DNA from: Styela clava
Lineage: Eukaryota
Assembly (NCBI RefSeq): GCF_964204865.1
Contig: NC_135256.1
Location: forward strand, 9,238,001-9,302,000
Reading direction: 5' to 3'
Length of the DNA: 64,000 nt
A program made the translations under genes and the position numbers. The notes under the pieces are model-generated. The model saw only the letters and a list, made by a program, of their open reading frames with translations. It ran no database searches and was not told the origin of the DNA. This document shows positions 3,022-63,741 of this stretch, in pieces. Each line of letters begins with the position of its first letter. The stretch's first letter is position 1.

Positions 3022-4530
3022 GTTTAGACCGATTAATCCACAAGCAGTTGGAAATGAAAATGGAGAATAAAGCCAGCGAGGACTATAGAATAAAAAGTAA
3101 GATGGAATGTGAAAGAAAATGAAAAAATCATCGGGGCTGGCTGGAGCAGCAAGGGAACTGTTTCCCGTCAAAGTATCACGCAAATGATCGTGATTTGGCC
3201 GCGAATTGGTAATGAATACCGAACCTTTCTTATTTCAAATTTTGATAACATAGAAAACATCAATTCTTTGTCACTAGGATGTTTGTCAACGTATGCGGTA
3301 TGTTATATTTATTACACTTGTCATATTCCACAGATATTTGAAAATAAAGAACAAAAGGTAAAAAAAACTTGAGTATTTGAGAACCGTCGAGGGAGAACTT
3401 TTGCCAGAATATAATATTTGTGATCAGTGCTCAAAGCAAGCCCAAATATCACAATCGCAACCAATGTATGCTGTTAAAAATGTGCGAATCGAAAAACGTT
3501 GAAACTGACTGGTATACAAAACAGTATCAAGGTATTCGAAACGTCAAAACAAATTAGGCTGAAGTAATAATAACAGCACGATATCACTTTGTTAAAATGA
3601 ACACCAATAAGTTGTCATGCCGAATTTTGAATATTTCTGTCGGGCGAGGAAGAGAAGTGTAAATAAATTATTGATTCAAAGTTTGATTCAAGTTTTTGAT
3701 AAATAACTGGGTGGTAACGATACTTGATGAGAAAACCAGGGCTTACATCATGCGAGCATTATAGACTTGGTATAACGATCACCCTTGTGTCTCCATCACT
3801 AGAAGAGAAGACAAAAGAGCAGTAGTTCTTAACCTTTTTTTCGACACGCCAGAGAAGAGGATGATAAAGGGTACAAAGCAATATCCGATGTTTTTTTTGT
3901 TCATTGTCCACTATTCTTTTTCTTGGAACCGCAATCTTCTGTTCCATAAAGAATGATTCAGCGGCTGGCGTGGTATGGACTGGCAGCAAACTCCAACCTT
4001 CTGTTTTGAGGACTGTTTTATGATCTATAAACCAGTGGCTGGCTTTTCGCCGCGCCTGCTACATAGTAGTATTTTGCCGCCGGGGTGCTGTTCCACTCTC
4101 GAATTCCGCCAGTGTAGCCCAGGTCATTGGTTTCGTAAGTATTAACTTAAAATCCGATAGTCTCTATTATAATAAATTTATTATAAAAATATAATTAAAC
4201 ACTTATGGGTCTCATGTACTTTCTTACCTGAATAACTTCTAGTGGGCGTGGCGTAACAATTTTTGGATATATGATTCCTGACCCCTATCTGATGACGTCA
4301 TCCAAAAATTACGTCACTGCGACGTCACAATAACGAAATACAGCTTGCCAAAGTATAGCGACGGTCACCCGTAATGGCGCCTACGAGTATGTCAACAAAC
4401 TCAATACGTCAGCGACCTCTCTCTTATCGGGGTCGTTGTACAGAGCTCAAAATAAACACAAGAATCACAAGCGACTAAATTGTCGCCGAGGAACGTTCAC
4501 GATATCCCATTCTGACCAATTTCTGTCCAT

Positions 4531-4930
4531 CAATAGCTCATGTATCGTGCTACAATCTAAAATAGAGCGTTATACAATACAACCCTAACCAAGGCTTTAG
4601 ACAAGCAGAAAATACATGTTATTTTACGCGATGGTTGAAGTTGGGTACCACACACATAAAGACTTATTATTTTATGTCCAGCAATAGCTCATGTATTGTG
4701 CTACGATCTATTAATAGGGTGATATACGATACCGCTCTGAGCTAGGCTTTAGACAAACAGAAAGAACATTTAATTCACGCAATGATTGAGGTTAGGTGCC
4801 GCAGACATAAAGACTTGTTATTTAATATCCAGAGACTGATCATGTATTGGGCCACATTTTATTAATAGGACGTGGAACGCTTTCACTCTATGCAAGGCTT
4901 TAGACAAGCAGAAACCGACATATTAATTTG
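4531..4930 (+). repeat. Second (type B) ~151-bp repeat, about 2.6 diverged copies, in the arm of foldback element 1
   Basis: CAATAGCTCATGTAT...GGCTTTAGACAAGCAGAAA...ACATAAAGACTT repeats at 4531, 4682 and 4833; mirrored at ~11990-12390, with partial inner copies at ~7290-7375 and ~10535-10665. Confidence 0.8.
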
Positions 4931-4944
4931 CCTTAGCGCAATGA

Positions 4945-7290
4945 ATGTAGTTTCTTACCTCGATAACTCATACTTATCTTAGCGTAACAATTTTTGCATA
5001 TATCATTCCTGACCCTCACCTGACTTCGTCATCCAAAAATTACGTCAATGCGATGTCACAATAACGAAATCGAGCTTGCCCAATAATAGCGACCATAATG
5101 CAATCGTGATAAATACGTCTGTGTGTCCGCTATGGATGTAGTTTCTTACCTCAATAACTTCTAGTTAACTTAGCGTAACAATTTTTGCATATAATATTTA
5201 TGACCTTCACATGACTTCGTCATCCAAAAATTACGTCACGGCAACGTCACAATAACGAAATAGAGCTTGCTCAATAATAGCGACGTTATTCGTAATGGCA
5301 CCTATGGATGTAGTTTCCTACCTCAATAACTTCTAGTTAACTTGGCGTAACAATTTTTGCATATATCATTCCTGACCCCCACCTGACTTCGTCATTCAAA
5401 AATTACGCCACTGCAACGTCACAATAACGAAATAACGCTTGCCCAATATTAGCGACGATTACTAGCAATGCCACCTATGGATGTAGTTTTTTACCTCAAT
5501 AACTTATACTTATCTTAGCGTAACAATTTTTGCATATATCATTCCTGACCTTGCCCTGACTTCGTCATCTAAAAATTACGTCAATGCGAATTCACAATAA
5601 CGAAATAGAGCTTGCCTAATAATAGCGACCATAATGCAATCGTGTTAAATACGCCTGTCTGTCCGCTATGGGTGTAGTTTCATACCTCAATACCTTCTAT
5701 TAGGCTTAGCGTAACAATTTTTGCATATAATATTCATGACCTTCACCTGACTTCGTCATCCAAAAATTACGTCACTGCAACGTCACAATAACGAAATAGA
5801 GCTTTACTATTAATGCCACCTATGGATGTAGTTTCTTACCTCAATGACTTATACTTATCTTAGCGTAACAATTATTGCATATAATATTCCTGACCCTCAC
5901 CTGACTTCATGTTTCAAAAATTACGTCAATGCGACTTCACAATAATGAAATAGAGCTTGCCTAATAATAGCGACCATAATGCAATCGTGATAAATACGTC
6001 TGTGTGTCCGCTATGGATGTAGTTTCTTACCTCAATAACTTCTAGTTAACTTAGCGTAACAATTTTTGCATATAATATTCATGACCTTCACCTGACTTCG
6101 TCATCCAAAAATTACGTCACTGCAACGTCACAATAACGAAATAGAGCTTGCTCAATAATAGCGACGATTACTATTAATGCCACCTATGGATGTAGTTTCT
6201 TACCTCAATGACTTATACTTATCTTAGCGTAACAATTATTGCATATAATATTCCTGACCCTCACCTGACTTCAGGTTCCAAAAATTACGTCAATGCGACT
6301 TCACAATAATGAAATAGAGCTTGCCTAATAATAGCGACCATAATGCAATCGTGATAAATACGTCTGTGTGTCCGCTATGGATGTAGTTTCTTACCTCAAT
6401 AACTTCTAGTTAACTTAGCGTAACAATTGTTGCATATAATATTCCTGACCCTCACCTGACTTCATGTTCCAAAAATTACGTCAATGCGACTTCACAATAA
6501 TGAAATAGAGCTTGCCTAATAATAGCGACCATAATGCAATCGTGATAAATACGTCTGTGTGTCCGCTATGGATGTAGTTTCTTACCTCAATAACTTCTAG
6601 TTAACTTAGCGTAACAATTTTTGCATATAATATTTATGACCTTCACATGACTTCGTCATCCAAAAATTACGTCACGGCAACGTCACAATAACGAAATAGA
6701 GCTTGCTCAATAATAGCGACGTTATTCGTAATGGCACCTATGGATGTAGTTTCCTACCTCAATAACTTCTAGTTAACTTGGCGTAACAATTTTTGCATAT
6801 ATCATTCCTGACCCCCACCTGACTTCGTCATTCAAAAATTACGCCACTGCAACGTCACAATAACGAAATAACGCTTGCCCAATATTAGCGACGATTACTA
6901 GCAATGCCACCTATGGATGTAGTTTTTTACCTCAATAACTTATACTTATCTTAGCGTAACAATTTTTGCATATATCATTCCTGACCTTGCCCTGACTTCG
7001 TCATCTAAAAATTACGTCAATGCGAATTCACAATAACGAAATAGAGCTTGCCTAATAATAGCGACCATAATGCAATCGTGTTAAATACGCCTGTCTGTCC
7101 GCTATGGGTGTAGTTTCATACCTCAATACCTTCTATTAGGCTTAGCGTAACAATTTTTGTATATATGATTCCTGACCCTCACCTGACTTCGTCATCCAAA
7201 AATTACGTCACTGCATCCTCCCAATCACGAACTAGAGCTTGCCTAATAATAGCGACGATAATAAAGCCGTAATAATGGCGCTATGAGTGT
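4945..7290 (+). repeat. Tandem array, 13 units of 172-173 or 191 bp (one of 154), left arm of foldback element 1
   Basis: Anchor (A/G)TGTAGTTT at 4945, 5136, 5308, 5481, 5672, 5826, 6017, 6190, 6381, 6572, 6744, 6917 and 7108. Confidence 0.95.
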
Positions 7291-7783
7291 ATTTTTTTAC
7301 CACACAACTAAAGCCTTGTTATTTGATGTCCTTCCGTACGTCATGTATTCGTCCTACCTTTATTCATAAGACGTGAAACAATGTTAAGATCCTTCAAATG
7401 TTAATACCACTACAATGTTTCCAGACCTTTTTCATCTTGCGGTTCACTAACAGCGAAATATTAAGAAAAATGTTTTCTGTTCTCATACCGATCTTTGAAC
7501 ACTCGCTCGCTAAAATTGGTTAACAGAAATTTGACATAGTGGAGGAAGTGGTATAGTATTTGATCTCCAAGTAATTCAGGGGAAATGTGAAAAAGGATGA
7601 AAGAAGACCATATTTATAGGCTCTTCAATTTTCTAACTGTTGAAATTTGGAATGGATTCGACTTCAAGCGCAATCGATAATTAAGCATTCGTTCACAATC
7701 CTGAGTTAATTTCCAGGATGCATCTCTCATCTATCTGTCGTTACGTTTGTTACGATATTTGTATTAGTGTTTTTTGTCAAACC

Positions 7784-7862
7784 TGTGCATCATAATGACG
7801 CACAACCTGAACCATAACCTGTTACAATACTATGTTCAGGTTGTGCGCAATCTTGGTGCACA
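7784..7862. repeat. Short hairpin/palindromic interspersed repeat, copy 1
   Basis: TGTGCA..ATGACGCACAACCTGAAC...GTTCAGGTTGTGCGCAATCTTGGTGCACA; related copies at 10207, 19385 and 36652. Confidence 0.75.
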
Positions 7863-10206
7863 AACTACGCAAGCACCAAATTTACTAGGAAATAAAATCG
7901 ATACCTTCTAGGTATTTGTTGAGCCCAGCTTTGGGTCGCGACCCATATACAGTATATGGAAATACTGTCGAAACATACGCGTAAAATAAAGAGTACTATT
8001 TCAAAATACCCGTTTTTTGTTGCAATTAACAGTACAAGCCTGCTAATGTAGTCGCCAGTGGTTCAAGTGGATATACACCCGGTGGAGAACAGTCAATTAT
8101 TTGTTGGCGAGAATTGTTATGCAGCGGGATGATCACGACGACGCAGTGAAAGATAATGATATCACGAGAACAAGAATGAGAAAATTGCTACATTTTATAG
8201 TATATCCCTGGGAAAGAATGTAGTTCATTCTTATGTTCCATGCCAATGCTTTTCAAACTACCAAAGACTCTCAACACTTTTGCTTCTTCTCTTCTATAAA
8301 AATACATTGTTATTATATATTCGCATTTCCATCTGTTTGTTCGTGCTCCCAGATAACCGATCAGCGCCTCCAAGGAGGACGGGGTCCCCTTTCATGAAAC
8401 CCTGTCATAAACTAAAAGAGGCGATCGTGCTTCTCTTGCCTGTTGTCATGCTGTCCCTGGAATTCAGCTACAACAAAAATTTCACGAAAACGGATTTTTA
8501 AATTTTATGATTTCAATAATATTCTCAACAATGAATGATATACGGGTGGTAAAATGCCAAGTTATTCCAACAACATGATCATGTTTTGCAATTTACAACC
8601 AATATTTTGTATGTAACTTTGTTTGACAGAGCCCCAAGAGCTCTAACTACAAATTTCAAAAATGTGAGGCTAAAATAGTCACACTACAACATTGTCAAAT
8701 GTGCTGTATTTACGATAGATAACAGGTTTACCAAAAAGAATTACATGCAAAATGGTAAAATAAAGATCAATTCAGCAATATCTACTTGGTGATATTCATC
8801 TGTTGATGATTTTATGTGTTTGTTTCGGAAGTTTAATAACAGAAGTAATTGTGGTTGTTGGGGATGTTTTAAAAAAGGTTGCATGGAAAAAAGTTTTCAC
8901 AAAATGTCAAGGTTTGATAGTAGTAGAGAAGTAGAAAAAATACTTCCATGTTTTTTTTTATTTGATAACCACGCCACAGAACTTCCCCGATAAGTATACG
9001 CAGCAATTGCGAGAGGCAGAAATGCTAAGATGGGATTTCATCGCATTATAAACCAATATTAGCAATTCTTATATATATTCGCGCATTCCCAGCTGAACAG
9101 CGTGAAAAAGATTGTACCCATCTACACACTTTAAGAACTATGTCAGATGAGCGTCATATTATCGAATATCAGTAAAGGAATAGTGCAAAGGGAAAAGACA
9201 TATAAGGCGAAACTTTCAGTAGTATGCAATCAAATAATCTTATTGTAGAATATATATTTAAAAACATTTCGTCACGCCAACTGCAGTCCGAAACTTTTTG
9301 TCTCTGGCTGAGCTTAGATACCAATTGGCACTCATGTAAACTGGTAAGACTGTAAGAGGCACGCGATGGAGCAGATACTAAGAGTATCCATCCCCCAGCT
9401 GTCATTTGAGTGGGTACTGCTGTTTTTATTGCAGATGTTACGGATCTTTTTGTATTAAAGATTTACTGGCATCACCGATTTAAGGATGTTGGAAACCAAC
9501 CCGCAATATTACAAAACTTACTTCCAACACGCGGTTTGAATGAATGAAAAAGCTGAAACTAGTATTCTTTAGAACAGCATACAAATTCTATGGAATGAAA
9601 TCATACACAAAAGCTCGTCAAAAACCTATAGCTCAATAATCAAATGGAATTTGATGCATGTGCGCAAAAATGTGCTCGTTACCACGTATAACCGAAGCAC
9701 GCAGGAATATGCGTGTGATGTACTAGTATTCAAAACGTTTGACTCAACTATGTTGGCATAACAGGTGCACATCTCGGTTTCGCATACGCATACCTTCTAT
9801 CTCCACAAGGATATATTAATTTTGCCAAAGTCAATGCAGCACTGAAAAGTTGCGGTTCTTCCAAAAGAAAACACGTTACACATCTTTAGATACCAGTGGA
9901 TGGTATTACATGGCCTTGTTCGGAGTGAAAGACGAGGTCAAATATTCCAATCCAATTCAACTAATAAAATATTTCCCAAGTCCCTAAGCTTAAACTAGGA
10001 AAACGAAATGCCAGATGTAGTTTGAAGAGCGCAATAGAAAGTGGATAGATGCTGTCGATGGATCTTGGTTTGTATTAGTGAAATAAACTACCATTTATTC
10101 TACTAAAATTGAATTTCTGACATTGTAAGGAGATTCAATGTTACTATGTATGCAAACCTAAACCATGTAGTTATGAAATAATTGTTTTTAACAAAAAGGC
10201 GCTCTT

Positions 10207-10298
10207 GAAGTATTTGTACCAAGATGGCGCACAACCTGAACACTGTATGGTTACCAGGTTAGGGTTCAGAATGTGCGTCATCTTGGACCGAATACTTT
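10207..10298. repeat. Short hairpin repeat, copy 2
   Basis: AAGTATTTGTACCAAGATGGCGCACAACCTGAAC...GTTCAGAATGTGCGTCATCTTGGACCGAATACTT. Confidence 0.75.
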
Positions 10299-10719
10299 AA
10301 ATCCACCTATAAAAAAAAATTGCTCAAGATTACTCCACACCCACCTGGGTATCATTATATATGTCATATACATTATATCTAAACAATAAAAAAAAACTTT
10401 ATGTTCCAAAACAATGTTAAGGCCCGATTCTGCCGGACTATCTTATCCAAAATGTATAGTTTACAAAAAACAAATTAAAATATAAACCTCACTGATAAAT
10501 GGTGGCAAAATACACCCATATAATGTGCACGTAAATTAATATGTCCGTTTCTGCTTGTCTGAAGCCCTGCTTAGAGTGATATCGCGTAACGTCATATTAA
10601 TATATTGTAGCCCAATACATGATCTATGGCTGGACATAAAATAACAAGTCCCTCCTTATGTGTGTGTGGTAGGGAGGCCGCTGCCCTCGCTGAGTTTGTT
10701 AACGTAGTCGCAGACGCCA

Positions 10720-11975
10720 TTACGGGTGATCAGCTCTATTTTGTTACTGTGACGTCGCATTGGCGTAATTTTTTGATGACGAAGTCAGGTGAAGGTCATG
10801 AATATTATATGCGAAAATTGTTACGCTAAGCCTAATAGAAGGTATTGAGGTATGAAACTACACCCATAGCGAACAGACAGGCGTATTTAACACGATTGCA
10901 TTATGGTCGCTATTATTAGGCAAGCTCTATTTCGTTATTGTGAATTCGCATTGACGTAATTTTTAGATGACGAAGTCAGGGCAAGGTCAGGAATGATATA
11001 TGCAATAATTGTTACGCTAAGATAAGTATAAGTCATTGAGGTAAGAAACTACATCCATAGGTGGCATAAATAGTAATCGTCGCTATTATTGAGCAAGCTC
11101 TATTTCGTTATTGTGACGTTGCAGTGACGTAATTTTTGGATGACGAAGTCAGGTGAAGGTCATGAATATTATATGCAAAAATTGTTACGCTAAGTTAACT
11201 AGAAGTTATTGAGGTAAGAAACTACATCCATAGCGGACACACAGACGTATTTATCACGATTGCATTATGGTCGCTATTATTAGGCAAGCTCTATTTCGTT
11301 ATTGTGAAGTCGCATTGACGTAATTTTTGGAACATGAAGTTAGGTGAGGGTCAGGAATAATATATGCAATAATTGGTACGCTAAGATAAGTATAAGTTAT
11401 TGAGGTAAGAAACTACATCCATAGGTGGCATTAATAGTAATCGTCGCTATTATTGAGCAAGCTCTATTTCGTTATTGTGACGTTGCCGTGACGTAATTTT
11501 TGGATGACGAAGTCAGGTGAAGGTCAGGACTATTATATGCAATAATTGTTACGCTAAGATAAGTATAAGTTATTGAGGTAAGAAACTACATCCATAGCGG
11601 ACACACAGGCGTATTTATCACGATTGCATTATGGTCGCTATTATTAGGCAAGCACTATTTCGTTATTGTGAAGTCGCATTGACGTAATTTTTGGAACATG
11701 AAGTCAGGTGAGGGTCAGGACTATTATATGCAATAATTGTTACGCTAAGATAAGTATAAGTTATTGAGGTAAGAAACTACATCCATAGCGGACACACAGG
11801 CGTATTTATCACGATTGCATTATGGTCGCTATTATTGGGCAAGCTCGATTTCGTTATTGTGACATCGCATTGACGTAATTTTTGGATGACGAAGTCAGGT
11901 GAGGGTCAGGAATGATATATGCAAAAATTGTTACGCTAAGATAAGTATGAGTTATCGAGGTAAGAAACTACATTC
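10720..11975 (-). repeat. Inverted tandem array, 7 units, right arm of foldback element 1
   Basis: Reverse complement of the left-arm unit (GAGGTAAGAAACTACATCC) recurs seven times. Confidence 0.93.
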
Positions 11976-12847
11976 ATTGCGCTAAGGCAAATTAATGTGT
12001 CGGTTTCTGCTTGTCTAAAGCCTTGCATAGAGTGAAAGCGTTCCACGTCCTATTAATAAAATGTGGCCCAATACATGATCAGTCTCTGGATATTAAATAA
12101 CAAGTCTTTATGTCTGCGGCACCTAACCTCAATCATTGCGTGAATTAAATGTTCTTTCTGTTTGTCTAAAGCCTAGCTCAGAGCGGTATCGTATATCACC
12201 CTATTAATAGATCGTAGCACAATACATGAGCTATTGCTGGACATAAAATAATAAGTCTTTATGTGTGTGGTACCCAACTTCAACCATCGCGTAAAATAAC
12301 ATGTATTTTCTGCTTGTCTAAAGCCTTGGTTAGAGTTGTATGGTATAACGCTCTATTTTAGATTGTAGCACGATACATGAGCTATTGATGGATAGAAATT
12401 GGTCAGAATGGGATATCGTGAACGTTCCTCGGCGACAATTTAGTCGCTTGTGATTCTTGTGTTTATTTTGAGCTCTGTACAACGACCCCGATAAGAGAGA
12501 GGTCGCTGACGTATTGAGTTTGTTGACATACTCGTAGGCGCCATCACGGGTGACCGTCGCTATACTTTGGCAAGCTGTATTTCGTTATTGTGACGTCGCA
12601 GTGACGTAATTTTTGGATGACGTCATCAGATAGGGGTCAGGAATCATATATCCAAAAATTGTTACGCCACGCCCACTAGAAGTTATTCAGGTAAGAAAGT
12701 ACATGAGACCCACACTTATTGAGTTTGCCACTTGCTACACTTTAAAGATTATTTCGTCTTTCCAGAATTAGGTTTGCTTTTTTTTGTATATTCATGGGGG
12801 TTACTTGAGTCCCTGAAATGTTTCATGTTGCCACTTGCCACTTTAAA

Positions 12848-21760: not shown

Positions 21761-23266
21761 TTACTCTTCGTCAATGTATAACATTGTTCGGTCAGTGAGG
21801 CCGAGATCCTTTAACGTTCTTTTCCAGTTTTTAAGCTTCTCTTTTGGCACTTGCAACATAGAGTATACAACGCATCTTCTAATAGGAGCTTTCATTTTAG
21901 TTTTTGCAAAGTTCATCACATCATTTATAGTGCTTGTTGGGGCGAAGTATCTCTCTACTCTTTTACCATCTGGTAACTTAAGTGCTAATCTCAATCTTTC
22001 CTCTCCTGCTGCGGGTTCCGTCTCTGCCCCATTTTTCCGGTCTCCTTGACCAGTATTTTTAGCTCTTGCAGTGCGTGGAGGGAAAACAGATTTTGTTGTC
22101 ATCAAGGAACTTCTAAACTTCTTGTGTTGGGGGCTGTCTTGGTTGTTAATATTGTTCTGTTTTCCTGTGCCATTGCTAGCTGCTGTGCGTTTCATTTTGG
22201 ATGCAGAGTGACTGCTATTTGTTTCTTGTTTGAAATCTGACACGCTCGAATCACTTTTATTCAAGTTCGCAGTAGCGCTGTCAAGAATCATCTGCTGGGC
22301 AAAGGAAGACAATAAATCCAATTCTACAACACTCTCTGTTGGGCTTATAACTCTGAAATCACTATGGTCTGGCGTCTTTGGAATCATTGGGAGAATACTG
22401 TATTTTGATAGCGATGATACAGGCCTTGAGACTTCAGGAAACTGAGATGGATCCGGGCCTGTTTAAATAAGAATATGGTTTTAAGTGTCAATGTCGATCC
22501 AGGGTCAAAATTGCCAGCTATCCAGTATTTATGGAATTATGATGCCAAGTTTTACAAAAGTTTTCTAATAAACCCATTGTCCAGTTATGAATCGGCTCAT
22601 CGAGAGGCTATGGTTTGTTGTAGCATGAAAGTCGCTTTACCTCTACTTCGTGATAAAAATGAAAATTTTATTCCTATTACATTTCCTGTGAATGAATTTA
22701 TTATAATCAACCTTCAGAGTTTGTATCTTCTTCAGGTTTCTGTGATGACTTGCTTGGTCTTGAGGATGCATTCCTGTAACTGCTGTTGGGGGGCCCACTT
22801 CGTCTCAGTGAATAGCCTCTGCGACCATAGGAGTGGTTTTGTTCGCTGTACAAATTCAATTAGAAATAATTTCAGATATACATTTACAAACTTCCCCGAC
22901 AGGAGCTGAGATTGTTGCCATCATATTCGTGCCATGGTCGTTTACCTCAAAATACATGTGTCATACTTAAAGCTTGGTTTTACTTATTCATGACAATAAC
23001 TTTGAATATCAATAATACAATAGAGGGTATGGCAACAAAATCAACTAATGGCTGATTTTGAATGTTTTGCTCACTTAATTAAACGAACTACTGTAGTACT
23101 TTCGAATTATCCCTGATAACTCTCATATCTATTCAGCACAGGCAATTCTGTAATGTTACCTTGTGGAAGACGATGTTGGTTCCTGAGTCTGATGTTGTCT
23201 TGGACGCGACGGAGGTGTAGGGCGTGCTTTCCCTTTAGCGGATTTTGGTCTGACTGAACGTTGCAT
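21761..23266 (-). CDS. UBXN10: UBX domain-containing protein 10-like, 3 exons: 23266-23160, 22845-22712, 22458-21761
   Basis: N-terminal RPKSAKGKARP motif; SSLSKYSILP motif; C-terminal UBX domain (LRLALKLPDGKRVERYF.PT...TLKDLGL); splice phases consistent. Confidence 0.85.
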
Positions 23267-24736: not shown

Positions 24737-25900
24737 ATGGCAAATGATCTCAATAGTATTTTTTCCAAGTTGCGAAACTTCGATGCTTACCCCAAAACTC
24801 TGGAAGATTTTCGCATCAAGACATTTGCAGGAGCAACTGTAACCATCATTTCTTCTGCTATTATGATATTCCTGTTCTTATCTGAATTGAGATATTATCT
24901 CACAACAGATGTCATGGATGAATTGTTTGTAGATATGTCACGTGGTGATAAAATAAAGATAAATGTGGATGTGACCTTCCATTATCTTCCATGTGCTTAT
25001 GTAGCTTTAGATGCCATGGATGTGTCTGGACAACGACAGATCAACGTTCACACAACCTTATATAAGCAAAGATTGGCAAAAGATGGTACTGTAGTTACTG
25101 AGTCCGAAATTGTAGTTTTGGAAGACATCAGACCTAAATCCAATAAAACAGTACCAGATGTGAATGAGTGTGGTAGTTGTTATGGAGCTGAAACCGTAGA
25201 TCTAAAGTGCTGCAATACATGTGACGATGTTCGTGCAGCATACAATAAAAAAGGATGGGCATTTCCAAAAGGTAACATAGTCAAACAATGTGAAAATGAA
25301 CAATTGAAAGAAACGTTGGAGTTACAATCTGGTGAAGGATGTCGTTTGCATGGATACCTCGAAGTAAATAGAGTTGCTGGGAATTTTCACGTTTCCCCTG
25401 GAAAAAGCTATGAAATGGGTCATATGCATGTACATGATATGGCAGCGTTTGGCTCCGGTGCTAAATACAATCTCACTCACACAATCAACCATTTGTCATT
25501 TGGGGATAATTACCCAGGTCAAATATTTCCACTTGATAATCACTATGTCTATGCAGAAGCAGTGGAAATGGTGTTTCAATATTATCTTAAAATTGTCCCA
25601 ACCACCTACATCAAGCTTTCTGGTGATAAGTTGAAAACCAACCAGTTTTCTGTAACGAAACATCAAAAACAACTGTCTTCCAGTGGAGCAGAAACCAGCC
25701 TACCTGGTCTTTTCGTTTCATATGAGTTGTCTCCAATGATGGTTCGCTACACTGAGAAGAGACGTTCATTCTTCCATTTTCTTACATCAGTTTGTGCTAT
25801 TATTGGTGGAGTGTTCACAGTTGCTGGATTGATTGACTCTTTCATATATCATGGGGGTCGTGCATTGCAAAGAAAAATTGAACTAGGCAAAACGACATGA
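24737..25900 (+). CDS. ERGIC3: ER-Golgi intermediate compartment protein 3, intronless CDS
   Basis: FDAYPKTLEDFRIKT, CGSCYGAE...CCNTCDDVR, EGC...GYLEVNRVAGNFH, YELSPMMV, CAIIGGVFTVAGLIDS, KIELGKTT; 387 aa. Confidence 0.97.
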   Translation: MANDLNSIFSKLRNFDAYPKTLEDFRIKTFAGATVTIISSAIMIFLFLSELRYYLTTDVMDELFVDMSRGDKIKINVDVTFHYLPCAYVALDAMDVSGQRQINVHTTLYKQRLAKDGTVVTESEIVVLEDIRPKSNKTVPDVNECGSCYGAETVDLKCCNTCDDVRAAYNKKGWAFPKGNIVKQCENEQLKETLELQSGEGCRLHGYLEVNRVAGNFHVSPGKSYEMGHMHVHDMAAFGSGAKYNLTHTINHLSFGDNYPGQIFPLDNHYVYAEAVEMVFQYYLKIVPTTYIKLSGDKLKTNQFSVTKHQKQLSSSGAETSLPGLFVSYELSPMMVRYTEKRRSFFHFLTSVCAIIGGVFTVAGLIDSFIYHGGRALQRKIELGKTT

Positions 25901-38250: not shown

Positions 38251-38671
38251 TTCCTTGTTATTCTGTCTCTCCCGTTCGACAAGATGTTCCTTTTGCGTGT
38301 GCGTTATTGTACATTCGTATGAAGATAAATAAATCAAAATCTGCGGTAGTCATTTCATATCCATGCCAAGGTCAACGATGCGTTAGTATTTATGTACGTT
38401 TGCTCTGGTTATATAGCGCATACATCCAGACCGATCCAGACCAACGATTAACATATCAGATTAGACAAATGGACAAGCCCACCATCTGTTCCGCATGATT
38501 TCACATTTGATGAACATGCACTGAACTGGAAATATCTATATCTCTGTGTGAACATGTCAGAGCTCGTGATTTCCGTCGCCAGATTGTGGAATCAGCGTTT
38601 CGTTCTGTGGTGAAGTGTACGGTGGATTCTGTTTGTCATTATTTGATCGCTTCGCGTAGTATTTGTCGACC

Positions 38672-39217
38672 ATGAGGCAGTTGAAGTATCACGAAAAGAA
38701 GTTGTTGAAAAAAGTAGATTTTTTCGCTTGGGAAGCGGATAACAATCTTCATGAAATAAAGATTTTAAGGAAATATAGGATACAAAAACGAGAAGATTAC
38801 ACGTCATATAACAAATTGAGTCGGCATGTGCGATCGATAGCGCGCAAACTAAGAGATCTCGAAACCGATGATCCTTTTAGAGAAAGATGTACTGCAAAAT
38901 TATTAGATAAACTTTATAGAATGGGATTAATTCCTACGAAAGAGTCACTGGCATTGGTGGACAAAATAACGGCGTCTACATTTTGCAGGCGACGTTTACC
39001 TGTCATGCTCGTTAAGTTGCGCATGTCGCAGAATTTGAAAATGGCCACGGAATTGATTGAGCAAGGACATATCAGAATTGGAACAGATGTTGTAACAGAT
39101 CCTGCATATTTCGTCACTAGAACTATGGAAGATTTTATAACATGGAAATCGACGTCTAAAATACGAAAGCACATTATGGAATTTAATGACGAAAGGGATG
39201 ACTATGATTTTGCATAA
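38672..39217 (+). CDS. IMP3: U3 snoRNP protein IMP3, intronless
   Basis: [45 protein letters not shown]...[23 protein letters not shown]; the ATG is at 38672 (the ORF track starts at an upstream TTG). Confidence 0.97.
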
Positions 39218-45043: not shown

Positions 45044-45590
45044 GATGCTGTACTAAAAGTCTCACAATTCCAAAGATACAGTAGACTACCGTATGTCAGT
45101 CTTGTAACAGCCAAAAACTGAACAATGTAAAAACAGTTAGTGGTCCTTTTCTATAGGTAGTGCCACCTGCAAATTTATTTCCTATTTATTTCCCCCCCCC
45201 CATTAACTCTTGAAACTGGTTTGCAGTTAAAATAAGATATCTAGCTGTTTCCGAGGAGGGTTGCCTACGCAGTACTAACAAACTTACCTGTAGGTAGGGT
45301 AACTAATTTTATTGAATTGATGAATAACAAATCTCTCTCTCATTATTCAATTTTCGGTCTTTTGGCTCTGACACTCGCTACCTGCCACACTTGGTTTAGA
45401 ACCAAAGTTACCCTAGCAGACATCTCTCAGCGGACATCTCTCTCGTTTTCGGAACGGTAAAATAGCGTTGCCAGAAAACGATTTAACATGGCACTCAAAT
45501 GCCGCGTCGGAAAAAAGGAAAGCTAGTCGCAAAGTACTTGCCAGATTTACGGCGAAATTTTGCTACACTCGGAATTACACAAAACATTAC

Positions 45591-48105
45591 ACATGGCCCA
45601 AACAGGAATTTTACATCAAAATTAATAAATATCAGTATTTCAACCCCAAATTCTGTACTTTTCGATTACGTGCCCCACTTTTGAATAAAATATCCTAGAA
45701 GAACATATTGTAAAGTAACCTCGAACCAAGTTTGAGAAAAAGTGTATGTCGGGAACATATATTAATATATTGTTAAACATGGCCCAAACAGGAATTTTAC
45801 ATAAAAATTAATAAATATCAGTATTTCAACCCCAAATTTTGTACTTTTCGATTATGTGCCCCACTTTTGAATAAAATATCGGCATTTTAACCAAAAATTC
45901 TGTACTATTTGATTACGTGCCCCACTTTCAGATAAGATATTTCAAAAAAAATACTGTGAAGTCATCTCGAACCAAGTTCCAGAAAAATTGTATGTCGGGA
46001 ACATATATTATTATCTTGTCAAACATGGCCCAAACAGGAATTTTACATCAAAATTAGTGAATATCGGCATTTTAACCCAAAATTTTGATCTTTTCGATTA
46101 CGTGCCCCACTTTCGAATAAAATATCCCAAAAGAACATATTGTGAAGTAGCCTCGAACCAAGTTTGAAAAAAATTGTATGTCGGGAACATATATTAATAT
46201 CTTGTTAAACATGGCCCAAACAGGAATTTTACATCAAAATTAGTAAATATCGGCATTTTAACCCAAAATTTTGGATTTTTCGATTACGTGCCCCACTTTT
46301 GAATAAAATATCCCAAAAGAACATATTGTGAAGTAACCTCGAACCAAGTTTGAGAAAAATTGTATGTCGGGAACATATAATAATATCCTGTTAAACATGG
46401 CCCAAACAGGAATTTTACATCAAAATTAATAAATATCAGTATTTCAACCCCAAATTTTGTACTTTTCGATTACGTGCCCCACTTTTGAATAAAATATCCT
46501 AGAAGAACATATTGTGAAGTAACCTCGAACCAAGTTTGAGAAAAATTGTATGTCGGGAACATATATTAATATATTGTTAAACATGGCCCAAACAGGAATT
46601 TTACATCAAAATTAGTGAATATCGGCATTTTATCCCAAAATTTTGGACTTTTCGATTACGTGCCCCACTTTTGAATAAAATATCCCAAAAGAACATATTG
46701 TGAAGTAACCTCGAACCAAGTTTGAGAAAAATTGTATTTCGGGAACATATATTAATATATTGTTAAACATGGCCCAAACAGGAATTTTACATCAAAATTA
46801 ATAAATATCAGTATTTCAACCCCAAATTTTGTACTTTTCGATTACGTGCCCCACTTTTGAATAAAATATCCTAGAAGAACATATTGTGAAGTAACCTCGA
46901 ACCAAGTTTGAGAAAAATTGTATGTCGGGAACATATATTAATATATTGTTAAACATGGCCCAAACAGGAATTTTACATCAAAATTAGTGAATATCGGCAT
47001 TTTAACCCAAAATTTTGGACTTTTCGATTACGTGCCCCACTTTTGAATAAAATATCCCAAAAGAACATATTGTGAATTAACCTCGAACCAAGTTTGAGAA
47101 AAATTGTATGTCGGGAACATATATTAATATCTTGTTAAACATGGCCCAAACAGGAATTTTACATCAAAATTAGTGAATATCGGCATTTTAACCCAAAATT
47201 TTGGACTTTTCGATTACGTGCCCAACTTTTGAATAAAATATCACAAAAGAACATATTGTGAAGTAACCTCGAACCAAGTTTGAGAAAAATTGTATGTCGG
47301 GAACATATAATAATATCTTGTTAAACATGGCCCAAACAGGAATTTTACATCAAAATTAATAAATATCAGTATTTCAACCCCAAATTTTGTACTTTTCGAT
47401 TACGTGCCCCCCTTTTGAATAAAATATCCTAGAAGAACATATTGTGAAGTAACCTCGAACCAAGTTTGAGAAAAATTGTATGTCGGAACATATATTAATA
47501 TCTTGTTAAACATGTCCCAAACAGGAATTTTACATCAAAATTAGTGAATATCGGCATTTCAACCCAAAATTTCGGACTTTTCGATTACGTGCCCCACTTT
47601 TGAATAAAATATCCCAAAAGAACATATTGTGAAGTAACCTCGAACCAAGTTTGAGAAGAATTGTATGTCGGGAACATATAATAATATCTTGTCAAACATG
47701 GCACAATCATGAATTTTACATCAAAATTAATAAATATCAGTATTTCAACCCCAAATTCTGGACTTTTCGATTACGTGCCCCACTTTTGAATAAAATATCC
47801 CAAGAGAACATATTGTGAAGTAACCTCGAACCATGTTTGAGAAAAATTGTATGTCGGGAACATATAATAATATCTTGTCAAACATGGCACAATCAAGAAT
47901 TTTACATCAAAATTAATAAATATCAGTATTTCAACCCCAAATTTTGGACTTTTCGATTACGTGCCCCACTTTTGAATAAAATATCCCAAAAAACATATTG
48001 TGAAGTAACCTCGAACCAAGGCTTTGGAAAATTGTATGTCGGGAACGTATAATATTATCTTGTCAAACATGGCCCAAACAAGAATCCGACTTAAAATTAA
48101 TAAAC
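45591..48105 (+). repeat. Tandem array of 186-bp units (13 full plus 1 partial), left arm of element 2
   Basis: Anchor ACATG at 45591, 45777, 46023, 46209, 46395, 46581, 46767, 46953, 47139, 47325, 47510, 47696, 47882 and 48067; two sequence variants interleave. Confidence 0.96.
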
Positions 48106-48467
48106 AACGCTATCACAACCCAGGATACTGTATACATTATAATGGCGTGCCTCAATTTAAGTAAGATAACATAAACGAATTGTGAAATCATCTCGTTCTT
48201 TCATACTAGGGATCTATCTTATATTTAAAAAAAATTTTTAAAATGGTTGGTCTTAGTAGAAAGCCACCACACCACGTCAAGGTGCCAACCATCGTGGCGG
48301 TTTTCATCTCAATATTATAGACTAGACCAAGAGAGAAAAACCTGGCAAAGGGCATGTTAAGCCAAATAGGTAAAACAGACTGATCCTTAGTCTGACTTGA
48401 ACGATGTACCTAAAAAAAATGAGAATGTAAATGATCATATCTAGTTGAATATTGCTTTGCATGTAAT

Positions 48468-51080
48468 TTAGCATCGAATGCACTTTTTGCAATTCCATTC
48501 TATTTCGCTGTTTTCCAGTGCCTCAACTGGCACTGAAATACTACAACATTTCGGATGGTACCATTTTAAACATGAAGTGCATTCGATCATGGTCTGATTT
48601 TCAATGTAAGACAGTTGGCAGTTGCAAAAAATCGGAATTTCCAATCGCCTGGGCGCGGGTATAACACGTTTCTTGTTGATGTTAAATACCGACGAAAAAT
48701 TTTCAGAGACTACACCATCGCATATTTTCTTCCTAAGATTTTTCTCGTCAAATAGGATATGCTCTGGTCGTATTTTGTTACATATAGGGCTATGCAAAAA
48801 CTAATCGAGAATGGGCCACATGATGCACCTAAAGTTTGTTGCTGGACAACGGGGAATTCAATTTGTACTTTATTTGTTTATTCCTTGCCTTGGCCGCATA
48901 AGAAGCGAAATCGCATATTTGTCATTTTCATTGTACTTCATATAGGAGCTATCATAAATCTGTATAGTATTTTGGTCGGCGGTGAATATATTTGATGCTG
49001 TTACCCAGTGATTTTCGTGCACAAATAAAATTTGAACAAATTTTTCAGAAGGAACATACACTTTAGGGCCAGATAGCGTTGTATAAAAAGTCGTGCTTTG
49101 CAACCCGTCTATTTCAGAATACCGAGATGACAAAATTAATTGTGCGGTGTTCATAATATCCGAGGTAAACCAGTCTCTTCTAAAATTAGTTTTGGAATTC
49201 ATTATTTTATGATCGACATCAGATAAATGTACAAATTTTTGGAATGGAATTTTCGGTGAGACGAACCGCAACATCATAGATTGTGTAGTAGACGCTTCGT
49301 CAGCTTTTATTAGAATTGGGCTATCGTTATTAGAAAGTTCTTGAGGGCGAAACATCTTTAGAGGTCTAATGGGGGGCTGAAGATACACTCCTTTACATTT
49401 GTCTTTACCCTGAATTCGGGATCGTTTACTCCATTTCTCAATTTCTTGGTCAATTTGGTCATTGTTTTCAACTTTCCTTTTTTTTGGACAAACAATCAAA
49501 TTATCTTCATATTCCCTAATCAAAGAGTCATGGAGTTCATCATAAACTATAGCAATCTCGTCAAGACGTTTAAATCGTCTGTTGTTTAAACGAGTTCGCT
49601 TTAGTTCCTGCTGACTTTTTTCCATGATTCCCTGAGTGCGATTATCTCGCGATATGTTTTGTTTCTCAGAAGCTGAGACTCTTGCATAAAAAGTCGAATA
49701 TTTCAAATAGCCAATTGAATTACCATATCTTCCCAAATCACCTACCATCAAACTTCCCCAGAGACATATCTTCGGGACATAGAACGTTTTAAATTTGGAC
49801 AATATTTCCGGGCAGTAAAAATTGTTGGAACCCAAAATTTCTGCATTACTTGCTATTTCAATGGCTGACGAAATGTCGCAATTCCTTAATTCCGTAAAAG
49901 GATTTATCTCGCTCAAATCTTCACCTGCTAAAAGTTCATCCGATGTCCCTAGGTCTAATTCACCATCAGAAGGCACAGGAATGTTCTGTTTTTCAATTTG
50001 CTTTTGCAAGTAAGTCCAACTATCATGCATAAGATTAGAATTTTGGCAAATTAATAAAATAGTGAAATGATAAACAATTTTACGGACTGTTTTCAACTCT
50101 CCGCAACAAACGAGTAGTCCAAATATATGCATTAGTTCACGTTTTAATTTTGGTAGTCTACAAGCTAACTGTTTAAAATTCTTCATGGTATGACTCGTGC
50201 ATAAATGAAGAAAGGGGCGTGAAAGCATATCTAAATTTGCGGTACCTTCAATGACAGCGTAACATCGCGAAATGTACGATTCCAAACTTTTCCGCATGTT
50301 AACCTAAATTATTGACTTTATAAGGGCCATGCTTCCATCGCATATAAAAATTTTCGCGGGGAATCTTTTAGTTAGTTTGGAAACATCACAACGGAATTGC
50401 ATGAGAGAGTTCGAAATATTTGGAATATTGTGCCGATTTGTTACAAACGTGGCAACGGCCAGGGGTGATTTGCCTTTTTGTGGATGACGCGTAACAATTT
50501 CATAAACGTAGTATGGACTATGCCCACCGGACGCCAAAATTCCACCAGTAGCGTCAATGTATATAATGTCAATAGAGGAATTTTGAATGAATTTTTTTAC
50601 CGAAGCCTCTGACCAAAACATAATACCCGAAGGAACCCTTGAAATTTGCTGCAAGGTTCCACGAATTACTTGATTTTTGGACCTTTCGTACTGCAACTTC
50701 CTCAGTGAATATAGCGAATCCCATTGGTTGCCGGGGTCGGGGACACGGATAACCCTAGATTCATGACGTGCCTTTTTTAAAACAGCTTGGAATGGGGCAT
50801 CGTCCCTGTTACCAGAATGAAAGACTTCAGACGAGAGAGCACCTATCTTTTTTGAATAAATCTTACGAGGGAGAACATGAACCAATTTTTCCTGAAACTC
50901 TTTCCTACGTTTACCTTTAAGTCTCATTGATTTTAACCCAATATGGCGAATCTTGCCTGTGTATGAAATATGAAACATGCGGGGGTCTTTCCGATAGGAT
51001 ACTACAGAAATTTTACGACTGCAACCTGTAAAGCAACAATGCCCACTACAAGCAAAAAGTGGGGCACGTGATCGAAAAGT
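48468..51080 (-). pseudogene. Disrupted MULE/NOF-like DDE transposase fused to a Ulp1-like (C48) protease and a PHD finger
   Basis: Zn-finger-like GHCCFTGC..YTGKIRH; IYIDATG (D1), ICDGSMAL (D2), CTSH (CxxH), RTQGIMEK (E); protease NHWVT, IYDS, QQTLGASCG; PHD FCNC..IECTSCLKWYHPKC..WNCKKC. In-frame TAG at 50304-50306 and two frameshifts near 48875 and 48785. Confidence 0.88.
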
Positions 51081-51640
51081 TCAAAATTTTGGGTTAAAAT
51101 GCCGATATTCACTAATTTTGATGTAAAATTCCTGTTTGGGCCAAGTTTAACAAGATATTAATATATGTTCCCGACATACAATTTTTCTCAAACTTGGTTT
51201 GAGGTTACTTCACAATATGTTCTTCTAGGATATTTTATTCAAAAGTGGGGCACGTAATCGAAAAGTACAAAATTTGGGGTTGAAATACTGATATTTATTA
51301 ATTTTGATGTAAAATTCCTGTTTGGGCCATGTTTAACAAGATATTATTATATATTCTCGACATACAATTTTTCTGAAACTTGGTTCCAAATGACTTCACA
51401 ATATGTTTTTTTGAGATATCTTATCTAAAAGTGGGGCACCTAATCGAAAAGTACAGAATTTGGGGTTAAAATGCCGACATTTATTAATTTTAATGTGAAA
51501 TTTCTTTTTGGCCATGTTTGACAATGTAATATTACATGTTCCCAACATATAAATTTCATAAAACTTGAATTAGGATGACTTCAATATAAGTTCTTTTTTT
51601 ATATCATCTTCAAAAATCTGCCCGGCCATCGGAAATCACA
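51056..51640 (-). repeat. Inverted 186-bp array (about 3 units), right arm of element 2
   Basis: Reverse complement of the left unit (AAAAGTGGGGCAC) at ~51056, 51241 and 51427, diverging toward the TIR. Confidence 0.9.
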
Positions 51641-54256
51641 GATAAGTTTCGTGTAATTCCGAGTGTAGCAAAATTTCGCCGTAAATCTGGCAAGTACTTT
51701 GCGACTAGCTTTCCTTTTTTCCGATGCGGCATTTAAGTGCCATGTTAAATCGTTTTCTGGCAACGCTATTTTACCGTTCCGAAAACGAGAGAGATGTCCG
51801 CTGAGAGATGTCTGCTAGGGTAACTTTGGTTGGTTTAGAGTGGAAGATACGGTAAAACGGCGCGAGACATATCTCCATACGACCCCTCCAAATAGAAGAC
51901 AAAAAAATCAATTCACCGTGCCAGAGCATCGACTTCCTTGTTTACTTCGTGACATTGGCTAATCAGAAAAATGCAAAAAGTGACGTAACAAGGCTCCCGC
52001 TCCGACCAGAGACAATGTATAACAATTTGTTGTTATGTAAAATCTATGCTCAGACACTTCCTCACTCTGATAGATTTTCAAGCGTGGTCGTAAACATTAC
52101 CTCGTTTTCGCGTTTTTGAACTCTATTCGTTAGTTTTCTGTTGTGTTTTGGAAACCCAAATATAAATCAGATAACTCAATGATCATTCTGTCTTCCTAGG
52201 AGTTTTAATTTAATTGCAGTAATAAAAAATAAGTGTAGAAATAGCTGTATAAGAAGAATTTTTCGGGGGTCAAAGGACGGGGAAAGGTCCATAGTGGTGG
52301 TAGTCTTTTAGGGATAAATTCGTTATTTCAAGTAAAATTTATAAAAAGACTGAAAATTGCTTATTTCGAAATTCTCCAAATTCATAAATTAGATCGATAA
52401 AGAGCCCGTTGTAAAGGTCTTGTATTAGGAGTCAAGTCGTCTGGATCGGTGTCGTGTCGTCATGTCTTCATCGTTTGTGCTCCGTGTGTATCTACAATAT
52501 TAAACTACATCAACAACGTTCAACAACATGTTCCTATATGCTACATGTTCTTAACTGGCTAAAGTCTGAACGTCACATTAACATTGGTTAATCTGCAAGA
52601 CGATATCGTCGAGATATAAGCCGCTCGAACAGTATAGCCAGAGACATGTTTGTGAACGCTCTCTCAGCTACGCTCTGGGTGGAGTCGTCAAACAAACCAC
52701 GACATGACACGCATTGATCCAGCAATGCAGCAATAAGGGATATCTGCCCTGAGTGCGGAACCGGCCCGCATGACGTCCCACATCTATTTATATGTTCCGC
52801 CAAACCAACACACTTATCCACAAGGGACCTGTGGGAGAGTCCGGTCGAAGCCGCCGTGTTCCTGGGTCTTCAAACACAAAACAACGGAACATTATCTCGT
52901 GTTTATGGGTTTGTCATTGTTAATTGACGGGAAGAGAGAAGCCGATAAGATGGTTTAATTATGTGGCGAATCGCGGTCTCTCGTTCGGCTACCAGTCCAT
53001 TTCGGTATGAGATGGTTATCCAGTTATTTGATTCAAATGCACGAACTTGTATTTCTGAAATGCATCAATTCAAGGCGTTTTAGTTTAGCAGCAGTGATCA
53101 AAAAGTAGTCCCGTAAAAAGCCATTTTAAAATTAGTTAAATGGCAGGTGGGCAAATCTTTCGAAATAAAAGAATGAATATGTAAGCAACTCGCAGATAAA
53201 GCATAAAAGTCCTTAACATATATATGGGAAGAATTTTTCGAAGTTTAGGGATCCGGTGACATAAATTCAGGCGGTTTACAAGACACAGGCCAGGTTTTTG
53301 TGTCCAGAACGTTAAACGTTTACTAAAGCTACAAGGACAAGTAAGCGTAGGCTACCCTCTTCGAGGTTGGCTGGCAATTCTGATAGTAAGGGTTCGTCTC
53401 CTCTGTGGCCTATGGAGTTTTTCTTAAATCTCACATTTTTGCATTAGGGGCGGGGGCCTTGTACAAAAGACCCGGATTGTCAACTCTTGGCCTATAGGCT
53501 ATTGGTACTAGGGGTGACCAGCCTACTTTCGACCGCGATAGACTAAAGCTTGCGATCGACTGATCGGTCATAAGGTCATACACGAAAACGAACGAGTACT
53601 GAATATTCAGATAACTGCAATCGTGCAAAAAAAAGTTACATCGCTGCCAATAAACTGGGCTCTGTGAGCACATTCTTAATGAAATCGGCACAAAATTTGT
53701 ATTTTCCATGTTCCATTTGATTTGTTGATTTGATTATGTAATTGTACCATATTTATTCGAATCATACAATTCAGATCCAGCCTAATTTTTAGTCGTAGGT
53801 ATTGAAAATTCCTCAAAAACCTTGCCAAGTGTCCATGTACTATCTATTCTAAACGACGGAAACTAGATGTGCCGCGGCGCACTATAGAGCACTATATGGG
53901 AACCATCGCAATATGCCACAAGCAAAATGAGTGGATTATACATGAGAGAAAGGTAGACAGACTGGTGTAACTTTATGCCTAATCGTCTAAAATTCACTAA
54001 TAGTTCCTTCCTTAACTAATATAATGATTTGAGTTATCACATAAACTGAGCACCGAAGATGTGTATCTGCTGAGCATTTCAATAAGACAACAAAACACTG
54101 CCCAATGAGAAGTAAAAATACGGAGATACGAAAAGTAATAGCCGTTTTGGAATATATTTTTATGTGCTGGGTGGCGCGACAGCAATTTGTATATGAAGTG
54201 GGTTCGGACCAGTATGTTATGTGATATCCACGCTGGATCGAGAAGTTAACTCTATC

Positions 54257-62267: not shown

Positions 62268-62910
62268 GTATAGGGCAAAGTGTCTATAAGTGTGTTATAG
62301 TCACTTTGGTATAGGGTTGTATCGGACGTGTCCAGATTATGAACGTGTGGGAATTTTTTCAACTGTTTTAATGGTGCAGGCACGACTGTCGTCAATGGAA
62401 ACCGTCTCAGGGCTGCTGTCAAATCATTGATAATGGTCAAATGCAGTTCTGTGTAGCGCAGACGGGATTTCCTACACATAATGCAGTTTTGGTGTCAAAA
62501 CATTACCAAGAGACAGAACTGCAGTTGCCGTGATATCGTTAACATTGCATAATGAGGTGCATATATATGTATAAATGACAATATAAAAGTTACGGTGTAG
62601 GAAATGATAGTTAAAGTCTGTTGAAATGTTTCGAATTGTATGTTACCTGTATCGGACTCGGTCTGTCTGTCTGTGTAAATTGTTGTCTTCTTTTAAAATA
62701 TTTCTTGGTGTCATAGTTAATGATTGATTTTTGAGTGTGAGAGAGTAATAATTTAAAAAAAGTGAGACCTCAAGACAGAAATTACATGAATACCATTTGA
62801 ACACATTGCAAAGTTTCAGACTTGTTGAAAAATAACGAACCTTCTGTATTGTTTAATTTGGACTGCATGCTTGATATAGTCTCTATTTAAATACTTGAAT
62901 TCAAAGAAAA

Positions 62911-63741
62911 ATGGATACAAACGATATTCCAGATTTGGATGATATGAGTGATCTTGTACAAAATATCAAATTAAACAAACAAAAGACTTATCAACACCCG
63001 ACATCTCAAAAAGGTGATCACACTGAACAGCAAAAAGTAGTAGAAAATGCAGCGAACTGTAAAAAAGTTCCGCCCATAAAGTTGCCCTCGCAATTTGGTG
63101 GTATGAAGAAAGGATTTCTTTTTGGCGGAAATAGGGGTACGAAAGCAACACACAAACCTAATTCTGCAAAATCAAAATTGAAAGATCAAGAAACTGACAT
63201 TATTGTTCCAAAACATCCAAGTGAAACTCAAAAAAATCCACTTGTTCTAGATGATGTTCAGGAAGCTATGAAAGAAAGTGGAATTACAGATAAATCATGG
63301 GTGACTACCGATTTACTAAAACAGGTTGAATCGAATGAAAGACTTTCTAATCAGCTTTCGGACCCAAATATTTCAAAAGCAATATCATGGATGCAAAGAG
63401 ATCCAAAAGGTGCTATGGAGTATTATAAAAATGATGTTGAAGTTCAGAATTTTTTTAAAGAATTTTATGGAATTTTGGGTAATCATTTTACTAATATTGG
63501 TGCAGAGCAAGAAGAGAAAACTAGTAATGTCAATTCAGAAGACGAAGCCGCCATGAGTGATATCCTTGCGAATCCTGAAATCAGGGAAATACTTTCTAAG
63601 CCTGATATACAAAAATTGATAGAACTTGTTCGAAATAATCCAGACGAAGCACAAAAGCATCTTAATGCTGGTAATCCTGCCTTCAGGGCAGATGTAAATA
63701 AATTAGTGTCTGCTGGTATTCTGGGTTTCCAGCCACAGTAA
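62911..63741 (+). CDS. Uncharacterised STI1/DP-repeat co-chaperone-like protein, intronless, 276 aa
   Basis: Two DP/STI1-like helical repeats (LSDPNISKAISWMQRDPKGAMEYYKND.EVQ; ILANPEIREILSKPDIQKLIELVRNNP..KLVSAGIL); N-terminal FGGMKKGFL motif. Confidence 0.75.
   Translation: MDTNDIPDLDDMSDLVQNIKLNKQKTYQHPTSQKGDHTEQQKVVENAANCKKVPPIKLPSQFGGMKKGFLFGGNRGTKATHKPNSAKSKLKDQETDIIVPKHPSETQKNPLVLDDVQEAMKESGITDKSWVTTDLLKQVESNERLSNQLSDPNISKAISWMQRDPKGAMEYYKNDVEVQNFFKEFYGILGNHFTNIGAEQEEKTSNVNSEDEAAMSDILANPEIREILSKPDIQKLIELVRNNPDEAQKHLNAGNPAFRADVNKLVSAGILGFQPQ

Follow-up and report, generated by a model that had tools for sequence, protein, structure and literature searches.

A Rehavkus-like foldback element of Styela clava in which a tandem-repeat arm meets the middle of a transposase gene, very probably at an internal-deletion scar

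In the genome of Styela clava, a transposase reading frame runs without a stop into the tandem repeat of the element that carries it. Was the repeat amplified from the N-terminal coding sequence of the transposase, as an earlier note on this DNA had proposed, or was the gene start lost when the gene was joined to the array, which the note gave as its alternative? We analysed the whole stretch of 64,000 nucleotides (the window). The junction is very probably an ordinary internal-deletion scar in a dead, non-autonomous copy of a Rehavkus-like (MULE-related) foldback element.

The element, a Rehavkus-like DNA transposon with arrays in both arms, occupies positions 45401–51830 (6,430 bp). Perfectly matching 9-bp target-site duplications (TGGTTTAGA) were found on the plus strand at 45392–45400 and 51831–51839. 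The left terminal inverted repeat (TIR), which is 185 bp long and begins with ACCAAAGTTACCC (45401–45585, plus strand), pairs with the right TIR (51646–51830, minus strand) with 3 mismatches in 185 positions. The transposase gene lies on the minus strand between the two arms, with its 3′ end at 48468. Neither a second copy of the element nor a lost 5′ piece of it was found within the 64-kb window, the sequence of which contains no N. The empty target site, rebuilt from 45385–45400 and 51840–51843, is loosely palindromic (CCACACT...AGAGTGG).

The tandem unit is 186 bp long and present in both arms. The left array (45586–48066, plus strand) has 13 units of two interleaved types, A and B, and is followed by a degenerate inner boundary unit (48067–48250, plus strand) that is identical to the unit in 123 of 197 columns, a score matched by none of 300 shuffles. 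The right array (51055–51645, minus strand) consists of a degenerate outer unit, one outer-type unit, one A unit and an innermost B unit that is cut after 92 of its 186 bases; it has no degenerate inner edge. At their inner ends the two arrays thus differ: the left one grades into a degenerate unit, and the right one breaks off within a unit that shows no degradation. The left arm bears a separate rearrangement of its own: it has no outer degenerate unit, its TIR being joined to an interior-type unit via a short duplicated motif, and it contains a chimeric unit. The motif is ATTACAC, present in duplicate where the TIR meets this A-type unit (45574–45592), and it has the look of a templated insertion; the chimera, left unit 2 (45777–46022), measures 246 bp, and its second half is nearest to the outer unit of the right arm. 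The A and B types (45591–48066 and 51055–51332) differ at about seven linked sites, and their irregular alternation suggests a 372-bp higher-order repeat. The degenerate outer unit continues into the innermost 40 bp or so of the TIR (110 of 171 columns; 0/300 shuffles). DNA comparison of the unit with the whole TIR stayed at shuffle level (229 of 300 shuffles matched the score), as did comparisons of the unit with the retained coding sequence, of the unit with the other foldback element in the window, and of the right flank with the TIR. For the arrays, the best reading is that they are subterminal repeats without coding function, which grade into the inner TIR.

The coding sequence kept in this copy (48468–51056, minus strand) is 5′-truncated and disabled. 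It is colinear with residues 165–1023 of P0004, an S. clava protein of 1023 aa with an Ulp1 domain, to which it is identical at 596 of 866 positions (tblastn), and it ends in a TAA stop at 48470–48468. P0005, an S. clava protein of 582 aa, is 97% identical to the window product (217 of 222 residues of the coding sequence, ungapped). The second half of a WRKY-like zinc domain is retained at 50943–51056 (minus strand), where Cys, Cys and His correspond to C171, C176 and H202 of P0004. The catalytic core motifs (49620–50555, minus strand) are D (YIDATG, 50555), D (ICDGS, 50339), CxxH (50201–50190) and E (49622); judging from motif order, the D, D and E residues would form the DDE triad. The CxxH reads CTSH here, and the D/ATG is conserved in homologs. 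A Ulp1/C48-like protease region lies at 48780–49200 (minus strand); P0004 bears PF02902, and the window's own segment had no Pfam match. The region is interrupted by two small insertions of about +4 nt near 48870 and about +2 nt near 48784, sized against P0004. A C-terminal PHD finger was detected at 48480–48623 on the minus strand (Pfam PF00628, E 8.1e-07, 29.4 bits versus a cut-off of 24), while a Pfam search of the two long ORFs gave nothing. A premature TAG at 50304–50306 (minus strand), Gln in P0004, precedes the CxxH and the catalytic E. No intact transposase ORF is left, given the 5′ truncation, the TAG at 50306 and two frameshifts. With half of its DNA-binding domain gone, the TAG placed ahead of CxxH and E, and both frameshifts, this non-autonomous deletion derivative cannot make an active transposase; transposase supplied in trans might still mobilize its intact ends.

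Array and gene meet at a run of five T (51054–51058, minus strand) that is common to the array (CCACTTTT) and the gene (TTT GCT). As the earlier note had described, the minus frame has no stop between 51080 and the TAG at 50306–50304 and reads TFRSRAPL and then FACSGHCCFTGCSRK; the open frame across the junction is 258 uninterrupted codons. TFRSRAPL is tandem-repeat sequence, as array DNA reaches 51055, and a single TGA (stop at 51083), which is TGT or TGG in other units, separates it from the repeat upstream. The note had also pointed to the frame that stays open upstream of the ATG at 50978. It is open for 34 codons, but 26 of them are ordinary transposase coding sequence. This leaves eight open repeat codons before the junction, fewer than the 33 that another frame of the right arm offers; in the gene frame, the TGA at 51083 is followed, as the next stop, by a TAA 21 codons further upstream. 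An in-frame join of eight codons can be put down to chance because any join puts some array frame in register, and the openness of the repeat at the junction is not beyond chance.

Two further observations on open frames held only in part. The 186-bp unit does equal 62 codons in length, but its consensus has 2 stops in 62 codons and is not an open, coding-like frame; across the array, the frame is broken because units L10, L13 and R01 have 1-bp deletions and measure 185 bp. The left TIR and first unit are open as stated (ORF 45468–45698, with a TTG start), but this ORF exists because the left TIR is joined directly to an interior unit, a rearrangement confined to the left arm, and 2 stops interrupt the mirror position of the right arm. 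The ATG at 50976–50978 (minus strand) is not the gene start that it had been taken for: it is an internal Met of the zinc domain and aligns with an internal Met of P0004 and P0005. An intronic repeat, with the TTTACAG near 51026 as acceptor, is contradicted as well, since TTTACAG codes within C-F-T-G-C, both Cys of which are invariant in 53 of 53 homologs. There was no AG acceptor before the junction, and no upstream exon in the element or the window. A 6-bp inverted repeat, CCCACT/AGTGGG, straddles the junction (51040–51066) with one half in the array and the other in the gene, probably by chance.

Intact relatives show what is missing. A word-based search of 5688 near-length candidates matched three, P0004, P0005 and P0006, whose local alignments begin at the junction and do not contain the repeat peptide. 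In BLAST and tblastn comparisons, all three alignments to the window begin at 51059–51056, with 164, 360 and 165 residues, respectively, upstream of the junction Phe. The N-termini of the three proteins, compared with the whole window, found nothing better than E 0.64. In ungapped comparison with P0005, identity steps from 1/30 before the junction to 30/30 after it, which supports the alternative that the gene start was lost by joining to the array. The sequences of P0004 and P0005 come from predicted gene models; the approximately 70 conserved residues beside the break are safe, but the far N-terminal parts are less certain. Array DNA abuts the middle of the zinc-finger domain, and at least the first 164 codons lie neither in the element nor elsewhere in the window.

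Searching the full library brought up 897 relatives, and 150 of them were listed. From 151 homologs, 53 were kept, each of which extended 70 or more residues upstream of the break and satisfied an alignment filter; the other 98 were dropped as fragments or weaker matches. Upstream of the break the 53 homologs share W, W, N-P-Y-C, F and H, with the Cys in 51 of 53, and downstream C, C and H are each present in 53 of 53. This copy has kept the Cys-Cys-His and lost the first Cys with about 70 conserved residues. An AlphaFold model of P0019, built on a 56-sequence alignment, had a mean pLDDT of 83.7, with residues ~79–195 forming one confident domain (pLDDT 84–98 per 10-residue block over residues 81–200), and the break falls inside it, at the start of the strand 149–155. 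The alignment of 53 homologs together with this model indicates that roughly half of a conserved domain is gone from this copy, and with it one putative zinc ligand. WRKY domains were the top structural match, although a modest one (Foldseek E 9.2e-3; VIA Z 5.5), and a PDB sequence search gave weak WRKY matches (E 0.14). As the scores are modest and unrelated folds lie within 1 Z unit (VIA), we use the name tentatively for a putative C-C-C-H zinc-binding, WRKY-like domain.

For this W-W-NPYC-F-H-C-C-H domain (P0004 ~100–205), no fitting model was found among the Pfam matches of the homologs; as a by-product, the 53-sequence alignment and the structure model define a C-C-C-H WRKY-like domain without a matching Pfam model. 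The C-terminal modules vary among 56 homologs, with UCH (PF00443) in 6, Ulp1/C48 in 4 and PHD in 7, which suggests that ubiquitin/SUMO protease modules are swapped within the transposase family. Some homologs among the matches listed reach 2,100 aa.

We favour a single internal deletion, in this copy or already in its parent, that would have taken away the gene start together with the 5′ UTR, the promoter and the inner right array. The probable mechanism is either aborted gap repair or end joining at a T microhomology of 2–4 nt. An overlap of at least 2 nt follows from the five-T run, to which the array gives four T and the Phe codon three; an ATT as the lost Ile codon would bring the overlap to 4 nt. 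Internal deletions that join the TIR region to the middle of the gene are the normal route to non-autonomous DNA transposons. Microhomology-bounded internal deletions are described in Ozma MITEs (PMC3814204), and deletion derivatives and unequal arms in Galileo (PMC3573991).

A coding origin of the repeat could be kept in the following form: the 186-bp satellite would derive from the N-terminal zinc-domain coding sequence of this or an older transposase, now near-unrecognizable, and residual homology would have guided an in-register deletion. We regard this as very unlikely. The unit length, a multiple of three, agrees with it, and as far as PMC9659126 describes them, TE-derived satellites come mostly from non-coding parts, with a few from retroelement ORFs. 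However, the N-termini of the relatives proved to be unrelated to the repeat, and aligning the translated repeat with transposase N-termini, the check proposed with the idea, revealed no similarity by profile or Smith–Waterman. The upstream-only profile was built from the 53 homologs, whose members scored 15.5–103.3 bits in leave-one-out runs; with the three closest homologs omitted, those three still scored 53–64 bits. The repeat peptide scored about 0 bits (−1.8 to +1.5 bits for unit dimers in six frames) and, with TGA read as W or stops as X, at most 2.7 bits in all frames, whereas the best of six frames of shuffled sequence reached 3.6 bits at the 95th percentile and 8.1 bits at most. In Smith–Waterman comparisons of the repeat peptide with the three nearest N-termini, 179–966 of 1000 shuffles matched the score. 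Two of 151 homologs shared 6-mers with the repeat, one each and in other frames, and 97 of 300 shuffles gave two or more. Nothing in the repeat corresponds to the invariant Cys or to either Trp. A MAFFT pairing of KNIL*SNL with KKIWSNL was rejected as forced, as it was gone in local alignment and in the profile tests, even with TGA as W.

The composition of the repeat also matched non-coding expectation. The unit consensus, taken from 11 ungapped units (L02, L10, L13, L14, R01, R03 and the outer degenerate unit omitted), has 2, 3, 4, 2, 2 and 3 stops in its six frames. Among 5000 dinucleotide shuffles, 26% of single frames had two stops or fewer, and 87% of shuffles had such a frame among their six. 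In the gene frame, 7 of 36 distinct variants were synonymous against 8.8 expected, so that there is no synonymous bias; in stop density and synonymous fraction the repeat equals non-coding shuffles. AT-rich satellites of about 190 bp often show a nearly open frame, and caution is needed when such frames are interpreted. No protein with the repeat peptide was found among 77 shorter candidates or, as weak evidence, among 19 longer ones. Many of the 150 listed phmmer matches reach 2–28 residues into the repeat peptide, and among these 150 of the 897 matches no best stretch begins before query residue 64, the query having 91 repeat residues.

One weak signal in favour of a coding origin came from a profile spanning the break, on which the real junction scored 61.2 bits and the retained part alone 56.4, a gain of about 5 bits. 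This gain was met by 20 of 500 shuffles, by 11 of 500 with the three closest homologs left out, by 71 of 1500 with the TT overlap fixed, and by 178 of 1500 with TGA as W (p 0.02–0.12 overall). A break phase equivalent to the observed one was the best of 186 array breakpoints (62.0 versus 60.9 for the next), and the homologs show a related pattern at the junction, with 4 of 53 ending in APL and 25 of 53 having Pro at −2. However, the excess comes from the three residues APL only and was noticed post hoc, as the spanning test itself was; with APL masked the score dropped to 55.2 bits, and a true N-terminus gives 130–133. The closest relatives read ANRI and SERV at this place, not RAPL. The likeness of APL to distant homologs is treated as coincidence, and we give little credence to H...R.APL, in register with the family pattern, as a surviving trace of coding origin. 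If it were one, the cis-acting arms of the element would consist of reused transposase coding sequence, which would be an origin new for foldback repeats. A literature search of partial coverage returned no account of this element or of a foldback repeat derived from a transposase ORF.

It is equally improbable that the array and the coding sequence were mis-joined within one element during assembly. Tandem inverted arrays are difficult to assemble, and the right arm is far shorter than the left. The window, however, is free of N and the target-site duplications match; furthermore, the right arm has outer units of its own, not copies of the left ones, and the sequence is clean on either side of the join. 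The idea that the junction made a functional derivative, in which an array promoter drives a 224-aa protein (ATG 50978 to TAG 50306) that regulates the family, is less likely still: the frame is uninterrupted and the annotation of P0005 also ends near the same region (residue 582), but of the four zinc ligands the product keeps only the His, so that it could probably not bind the TIR like KP of the P element, the comparison for a short regulatory protein that does, and none of the length classes searched yielded a database protein containing repeat-derived sequence.

Elsewhere in the window, a second, unrelated foldback element was identified at 4207–12711. Its ends (GGGTCTC...GAGACCC) resemble the terminal motif of Muta1, GGGTCTACCC, as given in PMC5499845, and it is flanked by an 8-bp target-site duplication, ACACTTAT, at 4199–4206 and 12712–12719. 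Its arms are 97% identical over 1092 nt and contain arrays of 151-bp and 173/191-bp units, the latter forming a 364-bp higher-order repeat. In its terminal 160 bp the element repeats its own array unit in divergent form (128 of 157; 0/300 shuffles), which provides a case within the window of repeats related to terminal DNA. The transposase of the element at 45401–51830 had no match inside it. An uninterrupted, apparently intronless ORF of 387 aa of the ERGIC/Erv46 family was found at 24737–25900 (plus strand), together with pieces of host genes at 21761–22462 (minus strand), 38660–39217 (plus strand) and 62899–63741 (plus strand), which encode UBX, ribosomal S4/Imp3-like and STI1/DP domains, respectively.

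Among known systems, Galileo of the P superfamily has, as described in PMC3573991, an unequal number of repeats per arm, defective copies with partial transposases and rearranged arms, as does the element studied here. It differs in having a P-type transposase with a THAP domain and a 7-bp target-site duplication, whereas the S. clava element is MULE-like, with a WRKY-like domain and a 9-bp duplication. Tetris of Drosophila virilis also has arms composed of a terminal domain and tandem units of about 200 bp, and PMC4079207 describes its units as derived from the terminal domain, not from a gene; here the outer unit blends into the inner TIR. In contrast to Tetris, for which no transposase is known, a transposase is present here, and the whole TIR has no match to the unit. 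Muta1 of Aedes aegypti is a MULE foldback element that likewise has subterminal tandem repeats, and it has a natural non-autonomous derivative and unequal arms; these repeats are described as enhancing binding and excision (PMC5499845). The repeats of Muta1 are 12 bp long within a 145-bp TIR, unlike the 186-bp units in kilobase arms found here. By analogy with Muta1 and Galileo, the arrays of the S. clava element may carry extra transposase-binding sites.

Among foldback elements, NOF of Drosophila (FB-NOF) is linked to Rehavkus. The MULE-related Rehavkus elements have a 9-bp target-site duplication, a TIR of 26–412 bp and one ORF with a PHD finger according to PMC6446971 (Dupeyron et al. 2019), and tandem repeats or minisatellites by the TIR are described there and in bioRxiv 10.1101/2024.12.02.626372, which includes Rehavkus-1_TC and -3_TC of Tribolium. 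The S. clava element shares the 9-bp duplication, a TIR (185 bp), the single ORF, the PHD finger, tandem repeats in long inverted ends and a variable number of repeat copies. It has D, D, CTSH and E, and the spacing from the second D to CxxH is 46 residues against a MULE range of 15–45 (PMC5499845); the Pfam MULE domain PF10551 was found in none of the window proteins and in 1 of 56 homologs (E 0.0014). The Ulp1-like domain found here is unmentioned in those parts of PMC6446971 and bioRxiv 10.1101/2024.12.02.626372 that were available as accounts of Rehavkus. Unlike a complete Rehavkus, this copy is 5′-truncated and disabled, and its likeness to Rehavkus is one of description. The hosts listed in PMC6446971 are arthropods and annelids, and the element appears to represent a Rehavkus-like family outside them, in an ascidian.
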